A stretch of 64,000 nucleotides of DNA from an uncultured virus (IMG/VR IMGVR_UViG_3300042975_000104) (Duplodnaviria > Heunggongvirae > Uroviricota > Caudoviricetes), in the IMG/VR virus record IMGVR_UViG_3300042975_000104; one strand, given 5' to 3'. Position numbers and translations under genes: made by a program. Positions 22,071 to 25,054 of this stretch are shown here, one piece after another. The notes beneath the pieces were generated by a model that did no database searches, was not told the origin of the DNA, and saw only the letters and a list, made by a program, of their open reading frames with translations. Each line of letters begins with the position of its first letter. Position 1 is the first letter of the stretch.

Positions 22071-24989
22071 TTAATCTTTTTTGTAGAAACTGCATTCATA
22101 CCCGTCTGCACGAAGGAGAAGTCCGTTGATCCATGGCGGCGTTCTGCCCATCTGCTTACATATAGCATCAAGGGATACATCCATATCACATTCCATGATC
22201 AGTTCATCATGGACATGCCCACAGATAAAATAGTGGGATAACGTACGCATGGCATAGGCAAGAATATCCCGGCTGATGGCTTGAACAATATTTTCCACGA
22301 ACTTTGGGCCGTAGCTTTCAATCCGTTCCCATTTTTTGGTGCCGCCAACGCCCTCATAGGTAACGGCTTCGCCGCCGAAACGGTTCTCTCCCATACGCGG
22401 TTTCACATAGGACAGACGCCTACCGCTTGGCAACTGGATAAACAGCATCCCACTCTGATAGACAAAACGAATACCATGTGTTTCAGTCGACATATGCCGC
22501 TGGACCGTATTTTTAACACACCTGTCCACGTCCCACCAAAACTGTACGATATTCGGATTGGCTGCCCGCCATGAATCCACCAACGGCTGAAGTTCTTCCT
22601 CCGCAAGGCCCATATCGAGTGCCCCCATTGCTTTTAAAGCGCCTGTCGAACCCCCGTATCCACAGTTGTGGACGAGTTTCCCCGATACGGTAAAACGATG
22701 ATGCTGTCCGGCATTTCGTATGTCATAAAGTCGAGTCGTGCGCGTATTAGATGCCAGTTCTTTCTCTTTTCGAACACTGCAAGTTCTGCTGACGCAATAA
22801 TCTCGTCCCGACTCATCCCCTGAGTAAGCTTTCTTGTGACTACACTTCTTGCATATGGCCAATATTGCTGCTCGAATTTTGTCAATACCGTTCTCCGTTG
22901 ATTTATACAATTTTCTTGATGTGTCGCAAACCTCAGATTCCCCGGTTGATAGTGGCTGTTCGTATCGATTCGGTCTATCTCCATTTCTCGCCCCGGGAGT
23001 CCAAAATTCTTTATCATATACAGACCTGCTTCTGTTACACTTACAAAATTGAAACGTATTCCTCTCGCGCCATAATTGTGAAATCCTCTGTCCGATGGAT
23101 TTTCGCAGCGTTGTTTCGCTGCTGTCAATCGGCGATCCAACCACAAAGGAATTTTCCGTTTCTGTGAACATTGTTGACACCCTTTTGACCTTCCACTTCT
23201 TAGGTTTTCCAATTCTTGCCATTGTGTAGAGTGGCAGCCTTGGCATTCCGTTAACACATAGCAATGATTCATCGCCTTGTTCCATCGTTTTTCCGCCGAT
23301 ATTATTTTCACCCAGCCGAATTGTCTGCCTACCATTCCCGGTTTGTAGGAGATGTGCGCCGCAGGTGGCGGCGATTCCAAACTGTACGGGCTGCGATTTC
23401 CCTTCGACCCATACAAAGTGGTCTGCTGTTGCTCTAAGTCCATCGTACTCAATAACCTCTCTTTCTCCCTTATAGATAACACCATCATGCTGTACCCAAT
23501 TTTCTCCATCCCATAGCAATTGGTTTTTTGTGACATCCTCAATCGGCACAAGACCTTGATTTGTCAGAACGAGTTCTCCTTCTGCAATACAGGCCAATTC
23601 CGCTATCTTTCCTTTTTGCCTGAGATGCCCGTTCACACCGTGCTTTTCTACAGGCACACCAAACATCTTACTTGCAGTCGAGCAATAAATATCTTCGCCT
23701 TCCTCAAATGCTTTTGATTTCCATTTTTCACCTGCCAGGAAAGACAGTACCCTTGCTTCGATAGCAGAAAAGTCCGCCACTACGAATTTCATGCCATCTC
23801 TTGGCACAAAGGCCGTGCGGATAAGCTGTGACAGCGTATCCGGGATATCGTCATATAACAGTTCCATGGCATCATAATCACTGCACTGTACCAGGCTGCG
23901 GGCCTGTTCCAAATCAGGCATATGGTTCTGGGGAAGATTTTGCAATTGAATCATTCTGCCCGCCCACCGGCCACTGCGATTAGCCCCGTAGAACTGAAAC
24001 ATTCCTCTGGCCCTGCCGTCCTCACAGGCTGCATGCTGCATTGCTTGATACTTTTTGACGGATGACTTGGCAAGCTGCTGACGAAGCAGCAGAACAGCAG
24101 CCAGTTCCTTTGGAGCAGTTTTCACAGCCTGCGCCACTTCCTTTTTTCCAAGGCTGTCCATTGCCATCCCATGATCTGCCAACCATTGCTTCATTTGCGC
24201 CACCGAGTTTGGATTCTCAAGGGTAGTCAATTCCTGCATTTTTTCTACCAGTGCAGCCTTGGATTTTGCATCAAACGCAATCGCATGGGTGACCATCTTC
24301 CTATCAAGGGCAATCCCACGGTCATTGATTTCTTGGTCGAGATGGTATTCGTCCCATACAAAATCCGGTACAGGATAGTTCTTCAGCCGATCCTGTATGG
24401 ACATTTCCACTTCAACATCACGCTTATTATAGAATTCAAACAGGTTCCACTTGTCGATAGCATGCTCCGGCAGATTGCGTGTTCTGCCGCCATTGACCTT
24501 GGTTGGTTTGCAGGGAATACAAAAATAGCGGATGAGATCTTTTCCTTCCTTTAATTTCTGCTCGTCCAATCCCAGCACCGCTCCCGTCCCAGCAAGGGAT
24601 AAGGGCAGTCCCATATATGCTGCCCATATCATGGAGCATTTCCATGCTGCCGGGTCCAAATAAGCACCGACCGTATCTTCGCTAATGCCATAGCTGTGAA
24701 ACTGCATCGGATAGTTTCGTTTCAGCCACATAGATAAGCAGACCCTCTCGAATGATGCATTAAATGCCCACTTGGTTATGGTATTATCCGTCAGCGCCAT
24801 AAGAATCTCCATCGGCAGTGTATCGCCCTGTGCCAGATCATATACCATGACGTCGCCACCGTTTACCGATACACCAAACAGCAGAACTTCAAAATTAGGG
24901 GATTGAGCATATTTATAGACCCCACACTTCTGCAAATTCACATCACTGTATGTTTCAATATCAATGGAAAGTGTTGTTATATTTCCCAT
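22071..24989 (-). CDS. Phage family A DNA polymerase precursor containing an intein
   Basis: Exonuclease DIETYS and AFNASFE, motif A ADFSAIEAR, motif B RQKGKIAELA/CGYG, motif C HVHDE. Confidence 0.95.
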   Translation of the reverse strand: MGNITTLSIDIETYSDVNLQKCGVYKYAQSPNFEVLLFGVSVNGGDVMVYDLAQGDTLPMEILMALTDNTITKWAFNASFERVCLSMWLKRNYPMQFHSYGISEDTVGAYLDPAAWKCSMIWAAYMGLPLSLAGTGAVLGLDEQKLKEGKDLIRYFCIPCKPTKVNGGRTRNLPEHAIDKWNLFEFYNKRDVEVEMSIQDRLKNYPVPDFVWDEYHLDQEINDRGIALDRKMVTHAIAFDAKSKAALVEKMQELTTLENPNSVAQMKQWLADHGMAMDSLGKKEVAQAVKTAPKELAAVLLLRQQLAKSSVKKYQAMQHAACEDGRARGMFQFYGANRSGRWAGRMIQLQNLPQNHMPDLEQARSLVQCSDYDAMELLYDDIPDTLSQLIRTAFVPRDGMKFVVADFSAIEARVLSFLAGEKWKSKAFEEGEDIYCSTASKMFGVPVEKHGVNGHLRQKGKIAELACIAEGELVLTNQGLVPIEDVTKNQLLWDGENWVQHDGVIYKGEREVIEYDGLRATADHFVWVEGKSQPVQFGIAATCGAHLLQTGNGRQTIRLGENNIGGKTMEQGDESLLCVNGMPRLPLYTMARIGKPKKWKVKRVSTMFTETENSFVVGSPIDSSETTLRKSIGQRISQLWRERNTFQFCKCNRSRSVYDKEFWTPGARNGDRPNRYEQPLSTGESEVCDTSRKLYKSTENGIDKIRAAILAICKKCSHKKAYSGDESGRDYCVSRTCSVRKEKELASNTRTTRLYDIRNAGQHHRFTVSGKLVHNCGYGGSTGALKAMGALDMGLAEEELQPLVDSWRAANPNIVQFWWDVDRCVKNTVQRHMSTETHGIRFVYQSGMLFIQLPSGRRLSYVKPRMGENRFGGEAVTYEGVGGTKKWERIESYGPKFVENIVQAISRDILAYAMRTLSHYFICGHVHDELIMECDMDVSLDAICKQMGRTPPWINGLLLRADGYECSFYKKD
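22634..23443 (-). CDS. HNH-type homing endonuclease overlapping the intein in the +1 frame (start uncertain: 23551, 23443 or 23335)
   Basis: GRQFG, CQGC, NLRSGRSKGCQQC, KQRCENP...NYGARGI, IDRID...YQPGNLRFAT..EN..N motifs of phage HNH endonucleases. Confidence 0.88.
   Translation of the reverse strand: MDLEQQQTTLYGSKGNRSPYSLESPPPAAHISYKPGMVGRQFGWVKIISAEKRWNKAMNHCYVLTECQGCHSTQWQELENLRSGRSKGCQQCSQKRKIPLWLDRRLTAAKQRCENPSDRGFHNYGARGIRFNFVSVTEAGLYMIKNFGLPGREMEIDRIDTNSHYQPGNLRFATHQENCINQRRTVLTKFEQQYWPYARSVVTRKLTQGMSRDEIIASAELAVFEKRKNWHLIRARLDFMTYEMPDSIIVLPYRGNSSTTVDTGVRQAL
22665..23591 (-). mobile_element. Intein, 309 aa, inserted in polymerase motif B
   Basis: Block A CIAEGELVLT, block B ATADH, block F LYDI...HRFTVSG, block G LVHN followed by extein Cys; removal restores KIAELA-CGYGG. 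Confidence 0.95.
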
Positions 24990-25054
24990 ATTGTCATCAT
25001 CCTTTATACAAGCAAGGCGGCGAAGTATTATCTCCACCGCCTGCCGTTCATTGA

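Follow-up and report, generated by a model that had tools for sequence, protein, structure and literature searches.

The stretch of DNA analysed here (the window) comprises 64,000 nucleotides (nt) of an uncultured virus of the Caudoviricetes (IMG/VR record IMGVR_UViG_3300042975_000104), and on its minus strand a prophage family-A DNA polymerase gene contains an intein. We consider it likely that this polymerase intein is spliced and that a separate HNH-type homing endonuclease gene is nested within it, out of frame, in the +1 frame of the same DNA (Table 1). The reading rests on comparative evidence: the conservation of both frames in homologues, the selection acting on each of them and the predicted structures of their products. 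Splicing, translation of the +1 frame and cleavage by its product are predictions made from the sequences.

The polymerase reads ...RQKGKIAELA, then CIAEGELVLTNQG..., and resumes at ...GKLVHN-CGYGGS (hyphens in such motifs mark the splice junction). The insertion motif, RQKGKIAELA-CGYGG, is one which we take to be polymerase motif B (O-helix). The intein start reads KIAELA-CIAEGE with the Cys1 codon at 23591-23589, block B is the sequence TADH (intein residues 55-58; 23429..23418), the last intein Asn ends at 22665 and the Cys+1 codon lies at 22664-22662; all of these elements are where the original prediction had placed them. Cys occupies intein position 1 in 25/25 sequences of the alignment (A2), and a C[IV]A start is present in 50/50 unbroken loci. 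Among 36 non-redundant homologues T55 is found in 35 and H58 in all, as are H308, N309 and Cys+1 of the LVHN-C terminus. Because the catalytic residues are intact and the polymerase exteins are still conserved, the intein would be expected to splice and to leave an active polymerase.

An AlphaFold (AF2) model of the intein frame was built on the 25-sequence alignment and compared with 48,161 PDB chains using VIA-align. Residues 5-89 and 289-317 are folded in the model at moderate values of pLDDT (predicted local distance difference test; ~50-81), and residues 90-288 have no secondary structure and a pLDDT below 50 (~25). Hint-fold domains, inteins for the most part, make up all of the best 32 PDB matches; the best is the NpuDnaB intein (4o1r; Z 13.9, root-mean-square deviation (rmsd) 2.9, 119 residues aligned), and another top match is gp41-1 (6riz; Z 13.8, rmsd 2.1, 115 amino acids (aa)). 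In the model, the Hint splicing fold is formed by only ~95 N-terminal and ~25 C-terminal intein residues. The ~190 residues between the splicing parts are a disordered, unconserved tether, and the sole constraint detectable on them is that they contain no stop codons.

Scans with the HNH protein returned 25 IMG/VR loci and 44 prokaryote-genome loci; 52 loci covering the whole element were used for the conservation counts and 36 non-redundant sequences for the codon tests. The polymerase frame is stop-free over 1050 nt in 50/52 loci, and the HNH frame runs for at least 220 codons in 49/52, the others (L003, L035 and L040) having an early stop. Alignment to the window is gapless for 45/52 loci; L022 and L023 are shorter by 3 and 12 nt, L060-L062 are longer by 3 nt, and all indels in the intein are multiples of 3 except the frame-breaking ones in L006 and L038. 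The frame relation is the same in 50/52 loci from unrelated assemblies, at 56-100% HNH identity, with an intein of 309 (or 305/310) codons, and in none of the homologues examined is the HNH in frame with the intein. The layout recognized in the original prediction is genuine and maintained by selection. Eight GenBank phage records also match the element, at ~69-72% DNA identity. In the annotation of Streptococcus phages Javan255, Javan422 and PhiSdyV1524-fexAoptrA and of Gardnerella phage vB_Gva_AB1 one polymerase coding sequence passes through the element, with the HNH in the +1 frame, and the match listing gives the same kind of match under a polymerase coding sequence for Javan101, 104, 107 and 113. 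A protein-database search with the HNH, with the 'longer' length class outside the search, gave 401 matches; the best 120 of the 401, which were examined, are mostly the same nested gene called on short contigs and are therefore uninformative on the ancestry of the HNH.

The openness of both frames is well beyond chance. Synonymous codons were permuted with the HNH protein and its codon usage preserved (2000 shuffles per sequence), giving an expectation of 9.9 polymerase-frame stops (mean) in the window and of ~10 on average over the 36 homologues (range 5-16). The number observed is 0 in 36/36 sequences, and stop-free shuffles amounted to 0/2000 for each sequence except the homologue L019 (P=0.001). 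The third frame carries its expected stops (13.1 observed vs per-sequence shuffle means of 8.4-20.0). A stop in the polymerase frame requires an HNH codon ending in T with the next codon starting AA, AG or GA; before such codons, 0/2543 HNH codons end in T, against 1637/6601 (24.8%) elsewhere.

The pattern of variation across the 36 sequences follows the same division. In the exteins and the first ~55 intein codons, variation is greatest at polymerase position 3; across intein codons ~60-280 it is greatest at polymerase position 1, which is HNH position 3, and the pattern reverts at ~280-285. These comparisons indicate that the central zone is under purifying selection in the HNH frame while its intein frame is merely held stop-free, and that both frames are constrained over intein codons 65-95 and 287-303. 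In the latter overlap all three codon positions are nearly frozen, with nucleotide identity well above that of the zones alongside (0.64-0.71), and the DNA reads as intein blocks F/G (RLYDIRNAG.HHRFTVS) in frame 0 and as the tail of the HNH (LDFMTYEMP..I.VLPYR) in +1. The dual coding originally proposed is thus supported, with a frame-0 Hint fold carrying a disordered insert of ~200 residues, a +1 frame under purifying selection and a frame 0 that is kept open. The outcomes that the original prediction named as refuting it, indels placing the HNH in frame or stops accumulating in the HNH frame of homologues, did not appear.

The +1-frame protein contains two CxxC pairs, NYGARGI and the motif IDRID...Y.PGN...EN..N, and the stop codon of its gene falls 31 nt into the C-extein. 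Its matches in PHROG are six families, four annotated as HNH endonuclease, another as restriction endonuclease and the sixth of unknown function; the HNH families score E-values of 6.5e-18 to 2.6e-4 (phrog_374 6.5e-18, phrog_3377 1.7e-15, phrog_2081 5.8e-10). An AF2 model built on a 38-sequence alignment has a mean pLDDT of 76 and consists of a beta-rich N-terminal domain, a strand-strand-helix unit and a helical tail. The predicted core has strands at 155-158 and 170-173 and a helix at 175-180; D157, R158, Y165, N178 and N181 are invariant in the 38 sequences and G168 and N169 nearly invariant. The loop Asn and the helix Asn/His metal ligand of the HNH motif are present, as N169 and as N178/N181. 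Residues 30-88 of the model weakly resemble SH3/Tudor/CarD-like barrels (Z 3-5). The C-terminal domain probably binds DNA as a helix-turn-helix module; a Sigma-70 region 4 tag (PF08281) is precomputed for one homologue, and the one Pfam match in the +1 frame is a weak hit to Sigma70_ECF (E 0.17). A free-standing 'HNH endonuclease' of an Acinetobacter phage has the same architecture at ~30% identity, and relatives of the HNH sit between phage genes, in positions typical of free-standing homing endonucleases.

The +1 frame is open from 23551 to 22634 (305 codons), as the original prediction stated, but the start needs correction: TTG 23551 is only the mechanical start of the ORF, and conservation favours ATG 23443. 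The HNH gene is most likely 23443..22634, made by internal initiation on the polymerase mRNA. It is taken in this form because of several features that coincide: 48/50 loci have an ATG at +1-frame position 49 or 50, counted along the intein, and 2/50 lack it there, the window ATG (23443-23441) being recreated one codon 3' of the usual place; a GAGAGG that may serve as Shine-Dalgarno site lies upstream of it; a +1-frame stop is found three codons 5' of the ATG in 20/36 sequences; selection on the +1 frame starts ~22 codons 5' of the ancestral MVG (~intein codon 64), with GNRSRYSLESPPPAAHISYKPE conserved and its third positions variable; residues 20-36 of the extension are modelled at a pLDDT of ~88-92; and gene callers on short contigs most often predict 270-residue proteins from a 23443-type start. 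The codon of the downstream MVG motif is ATG in 43/51 rows and ATT, ATC or CTG in 8/51. ATG 23335 is regarded as an ancestral-type start because free-standing relatives begin at that motif (MxGxxFG), that of the Acinetobacter phage HNH being MIGLNFGKL. We note that a stretch 5' of the MVG codon, GCCGCC.CC.GCGGCGCACATCTC (window 23297-23320; intein codons 74-81), is nearly invariant at all codon positions and holds a GCCGC...GCGGC inverted repeat. Dual coding may explain this invariance, the two frames reading PPPAAHIS (HNH) and AA..GAHL (intein).

The distribution of the element among related polymerases is sporadic. The closest 80 N-extein relatives in IMG/VR comprise 76 intein-free alleles, 3 with a mini-intein and 1 with a full intein. 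In the 76 intein-free alleles (among loci L076-L155) the +1 residue is Leu in 74 and Cys in 2, and the first C-extein residue is Cys in all 50 unbroken full-intein loci and in the 10 mapped mini-inteins (window 22662-22664); either the codon is co-converted by homing or only alleles with Cys allow the intein to persist. A FastTree phylogeny was built from 117 different N-exteins, 69 of them intein-free, 39 with the full intein and 9 with a mini-intein. On it the intein state must change at least 12 times, and well-supported branches force 9 of these changes (shuffled mean 37.3); the window lies inside a mostly intein-free clade, next to two mini-intein alleles. The window intein differs from that of L005 at 4/927 nt (99.6% identity), with flanks that are 86-100% identical in 50-nt bins, and L010 and L042 have an intein identity of 0.974 vs 0.815 and 0.905 for their flanks. 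Values for L022 and L023 in the all-pairs comparison of intein and flank identity were discarded as artefacts of ungapped comparison. Loss of the HNH region in frame has produced at least 10 natural mini-inteins of 120-168 aa, which retain codons 1 to ~85-108 and ~250/283 to 309, the central zone being largely deleted. Two of them, in relatives nearly identical to the window, are explained by a single deletion each (489 and 513 nt). A further candidate mini-intein allele, which would co-occur with the full element, a contig (X9) joining 22697 to 23331 with 633 nt skipped (a multiple of 3), was too weak to be accepted, with 23 letters on the shorter side and a depth of 3.4. Because of the sporadic distribution on the tree, the near-identical inteins in diverged flanks and the mini-intein derivatives, the data fit a homing element that invades, persists and decays, with a mostly vertical history.

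The polymerase frame is translated straight through the element, and we propose that the precursor would splice to give the active polymerase. The HNH would be made separately from the polymerase mRNA by internal initiation at ATG 23443, behind the GAGG, and would combine a Cys4 beta-rich domain, the beta-beta-alpha-metal core and a helix-turn-helix tail. It would cut intein-free polymerase alleles at KIAELA-(L/C)GYGG, and repair of the cut allele would copy the intein and the nuclease gene together (homing). As to origin, a free-standing phage HNH gene probably invaded a mini-intein, in agreement with the model proposed for other out-of-frame intein endonucleases, and the nested gene would later have gained a 36-codon N-terminal extension overlapping the N-terminal splicing domain.

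Several observations count against this reading, and they bear differently on the alternatives to it. In the profile searches, the expectation of HNH and Hint matches held for the PHROG HNH families in the +1 frame and failed for the curated models: Pfam (E<=1) and NCBIfam (E<=0.1) give no family for the intein sequence, and in neither frame do they report an intein or an HNH domain. A profile search of PDB sequences with the intein alignment was weak (E 0.21-0.9; NEQ068 E 0.21, Npu-type E 0.33). For the intein, the missing curated match is a detection limit, and such a match is not a defining feature of inteins. For the nuclease, the best specific structural match of the model is PacI (3m7k_A), which is weak (Z 5.3, rmsd 3.1, 74 aligned, model residues 99-185) and tied with unrelated rows; Foldseek against the PDB found nothing at E<=1e-3, with PacI second at E 0.33, and a profile search of PDB sequences with the HNH alignment found nothing significant, the best hit being a regulatory protein at E 0.55. 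Canonical HNH/EndoVII enzymes have a general-base His at the end of strand 1, and in 38/38 HNH sequences this position is an invariant Arg (D157-R158). As the structural matches are weak and this His is replaced, nuclease activity of the +1-frame protein is put forward only as a prediction. One alternative is therefore that the protein is functional but is not a homing nuclease, acting instead as a DNA-binding or nicking phage accessory or as a helper of the intein or polymerase. That the intein and its flanks diverge in step over most pairs would suit this explanation: over 990 pairs the mean intein identity (0.638) equals that of the flanks (0.632), only two pairs stand out, and most of the element's history therefore looks vertical. 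The sampling for the tree is also biased, intein-bearing loci having been found via the HNH and intein-free ones by closeness to the window, and its counts of state changes cannot tell gains from losses. Nevertheless, we consider a non-nuclease role unlikely, although it deserves some weight, as the matching PHROG families are annotated as HNH endonuclease, the relatives occupy positions of free-standing homing endonucleases, the intein is sporadic on the extein tree with one pair having a near-identical intein in diverged flanks, and repeated loss of the HNH region is what would be expected of a selfish nuclease once its targets are saturated. A variant of the nuclease model may be raised because an invariant Arg replaces the His and the 36-residue N-terminal extension, which is conserved, occurs only in the nested form: the HNH and the excised intein could act as a two-chain enzyme, in which the Hint domain and the ~190-residue tether give docking or DNA contacts. 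The Hint domain of PI-SceI supplies such contacts. This is a long shot, but if true the nuclease would be licensed only after translation and splicing of the polymerase, and the stop-free linker would be a functional tether rather than read-through that is only tolerated.

The same Arg, the early HNH stops in L003, L035 and L040 (3/52) and the deletion of the HNH region in at least 10 loci could be read as signs that a once in-frame HNH was frameshifted and is now a pseudogene, with only splicing maintained. The Arg is also present at the general-base position of the free-standing Acinetobacter phage homologue (SIDRID) and, being common to free-standing relatives, is therefore a family trait rather than a result of decay. 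Decay is made very improbable by the central zone, in which the +1 frame has an aa identity of 0.67 vs 0.33 for the intein frame, equal to the non-coding frame, and by the concentration of variation at HNH third positions and the retention of the start ATG in 48/50 loci. How the HNH is expressed is a separate question, and programmed +1 ribosomal frameshifting, giving a fusion of N-extein, N-intein and HNH, could replace internal initiation. Both ORFs are on one strand and one mRNA, no promoter-like site was found just upstream of the HNH start on the minus strand, +1-frame selection begins upstream of the ancestral start, and the Shine-Dalgarno spacer of the window is long (12 nt from GAGG to ATG vs ~8 nt in most homologues). 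However, a frameshift would not need the ATG that is kept in 48/50 loci and that has been recreated one codon downstream in the window, the +1-frame stops directly upstream confine any shift to at most ~15 codons, and a search around the HNH start gave no RNA structure (fold z-score 0.81); we therefore regard frameshifting as improbable. Finally, an in-frame HNH intein altered by two compensating indel errors, which the original prediction had argued against, is hardly conceivable. A 1-nt deletion in L038 and a rearranged upstream region in L006 do affect the frames, both in the N-terminal part of the intein, but the frame relation is shared by 50/52 loci of unrelated assemblies, the intein frame is open where ~10 stops are expected, and no homologue has the HNH in frame. 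Contigs from three other studies (X3, X8 and X9) cover the region with substitutions only and no indels, X3 providing a single contig that spans 22402-23772, ungapped and with 9 substitutions. RNA-labelled runs (X15-X20) are also represented by contigs, which may be DNA, and X15 covers only parts of the stretch. As both frames are kept across loci, stops are avoided and independent contigs are free of indels, sequencing error is excluded.

The original prediction left room for the layout being new. It is not: inteins with a homing endonuclease in another frame or on the opposite strand have been described, and the layout is already known as a kind. According to the main text of their preprint, Gosselin, Arsenault and Gogarten (bioRxiv 10.1101/2025.01.02.630785) found actinophage inteins with antisense LAGLIDADG or VSR-like endonucleases and one same-strand endonuclease VII-like gene 'in frame 3', their HNH cases being in frame, and proposed that free-standing endonuclease genes invaded inteins. 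As presented there, those inteins share with the window element a contiguous, presumably splicing intein, an in-frame middle without recognizable fold, a nested ORF between the splicing blocks, two open ORFs and an endonuclease related to free-standing phage endonucleases. The window has all three diagnostic features of an out-of-frame-endonuclease intein, namely the nested ORF between splicing blocks, the foldless middle and the two open ORFs. It differs from the actinophage examples of that text in its nuclease (Cys4, DRID-type HNH and helix-turn-helix), in the +1 frame and in the family-A polymerase intein. The hosts also differ, being here Bacillota prophages (Megasphaera, Lachnospiraceae, Streptococcus) together with a Gardnerella phage. 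Streptococcus is not mentioned in the main text of the preprint, to which the term search was confined. In the cyanobacterial dnaX intein described by Phillips, DeSimone and Gogarten (bioRxiv 10.64898/2026.09.14.751524), whose text on this intein cites Gorbalenya 1998, an out-of-frame LAGLIDADG endonuclease is under frame-dependent selection. In the account given, the ORFs overlap, selection constrains the endonuclease frame and is relaxed on the intein frame, the element occurs sporadically, mini-intein alleles co-occur and secondary invasion of a mini-intein is proposed, all as here, whereas the nuclease type (LAGLIDADG), the frame, the gene (dnaX) and the cellular rather than phage setting are different.

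Two further systems described in the literature are related in part. Arsenault et al. (Genes 2025) reported an insertion in a methylase, other than an intein, that holds an out-of-frame HNH. As outlined there, this ShiLan insertion resembles the window element in having a same-strand out-of-frame HNH, an insertion that is stop-free in the host frame and a proposed internal initiation, but it lacks a splicing domain and is thought to stay as a protein loop, whereas the window element is a Hint-fold intein with Cys1, TxxH, HN and Cys+1. The fractured genes of Dassa et al. (2009; NAR, PMC2677866) have split inteins flanking a free-standing endonuclease gene. By that description the intein has, at its endonuclease insertion point, a gene for an endonuclease of free-standing type, as here, and the evolutionary model is the same; however, the host gene and intein are there split into two trans-splicing ORFs. 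In the window a single ORF of 988 codons (single in 50/52 loci) runs through the element because the nuclease gene is overprinted in another frame. Among titles and abstracts from full-text literature searches, with preprint supplements outside their scope, there was no out-of-frame HNH in a family-A polymerase intein and nothing on these Streptococcus and Gardnerella phages, and the results of a search on vB_Gva_AB1 contained no mention of the phage. The element adds to the recently described out-of-frame-endonuclease inteins an HNH-type nuclease, family-A polymerase genes as hosts, and prophages of gut, rumen, wastewater and streptococcal Bacillota. It offers a clean and quantified case of overprinting, in which two kinds of selection act on the same 0.6 kb, one for protein sequence and one for the absence of stops. 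Gene callers that forbid same-strand nested genes would systematically miss such nucleases. Alleles of close relatives run from intein-free through the full element to in-frame mini-inteins, a natural series well suited to the study of the homing cycle, and it defines a minimal splicing core of residues 1 to ~85 and ~283-309.

Table 1. Features of the polymerase gene, its intein and the nested HNH-like gene (window coordinates; identities are pairwise means)
Feature	Coordinates	Strand	Remarks
Prophage family-A DNA polymerase open reading frame (ORF)	22071..25037	-	988 codons from GTG; single frame, intein read through
Class-1 intein	22665..23591	-	309 codons in polymerase frame, inside RQKGKIAELA-CGYGG motif
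Nested HNH-like homing-endonuclease gene (putative), +1 frame	22634..23443	-	269 codons + TAA
Shine-Dalgarno-like GAGAGG upstream of HNH start	23456..23461	-	GAGG <=20 nt upstream in 43/50 loci
ATG of 'MVGxQ[FY]GW' motif	23333..23335	-	Ancestral-type start, probably internal now
Two CxxC pairs, C67/C70 and C89/C92 of HNH protein	23168..23245	-	Small beta-rich N-terminal domain; cysteines invariant in 38 sequences
Predicted beta-beta-alpha-metal core, HNH residues 155-181	22901..22981	-	EIDRID...Y.PGNLRF..H.EN..N; AF2
Helical C-terminal domain, HNH residues ~187-247	22703..22885	-	AF2 helices 199-207, 212-224, 230-239
Zone of intein codons 65-95			aa identity: intein frame 0.61, HNH 0.76, third 0.57; nucleotide 0.79
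Central zone, intein codons 96-286	22734..23306	-	aa identity: intein frame 0.33, HNH 0.67, third 0.33; nucleotide 0.64
Doubly constrained overlap, intein codons 287-303	22683..22733	-	aa identity: intein 0.92, HNH 0.84, third 0.85; nucleotide 0.93

With respect to the polymerase gene itself, ATG 24989 is a likelier start than the GTG. The ORF matches Pfam DNA_pol_A (E 1.8e-19) and, in part, NCBIfam DNA polymerase I models. The adjoining genes are prophage replication genes, and a 100% identical locus is that of a Megasphaera sueciensis chromosome; the window is part of a prophage in a Megasphaera chromosome. In the four deposited phage genomes whose annotation is described above (L001-L004; MK448719, MW387018, OQ418408 and MK448934) neither the intein nor the nested HNH is annotated, the whole stretch being labelled DNA polymerase (I).

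Some of the related loci have features of their own. In L005 (283-3627; IMG/VR, 98% HNH identity to the window) a second, unrelated intein is present upstream, at GANRTGRW-C...VTGN-SGRLIQLQNLP; the window lacks it and reads GANRSGRWAGRMIQLQNLP uninterrupted. The long branch of L005, L027 and L072 on the extein tree had suggested a divergent extein; this was rejected for L005, where the branch comes from the second intein, which lies in the N-extein. L027 and L072 cluster with L005 there and may have such an intein too. A distant family-A polymerase, gp51 of EBPR siphovirus 2 (L156:828-3965), has an intein at the same site as the window (KVSELA-CFGADT...LLVHN-CGFGG), and the other alternative frame of that intein (offset 2) encodes an HNH of the window's HNH family (35% identity); this nuclease family is therefore found in polymerase inteins in both of the alternative frames.

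In L038 (Eubacterium plexicaudatum ASF492) the 1-nt deletion at ~intein codon 43 ends the polymerase frame just before the HNH start, and the HNH is intact, with 233 codons after MVG; this locus is either a pseudogenised polymerase or an assembly error. In L006 (1886-3202 and 2521-3765; IMG/VR) an unrelated ORF with a sigma-region-4-like helix-turn-helix replaces the N-extein and the first ~64 intein codons and is fused in frame to the HNH exactly where selection on the HNH frame begins. The C-terminal intein and C-extein are kept downstream, beside a repressor/ImmA-like pair, and the locus may be a rearranged prophage remnant. A second, weaker HNH match (25-35% identity) lies ~1-1.3 kb 3' of the nested copy in L022/L023 (4487-4927) and L060 (4001-4231), and may be a free-standing paralogue next to the polymerase gene.

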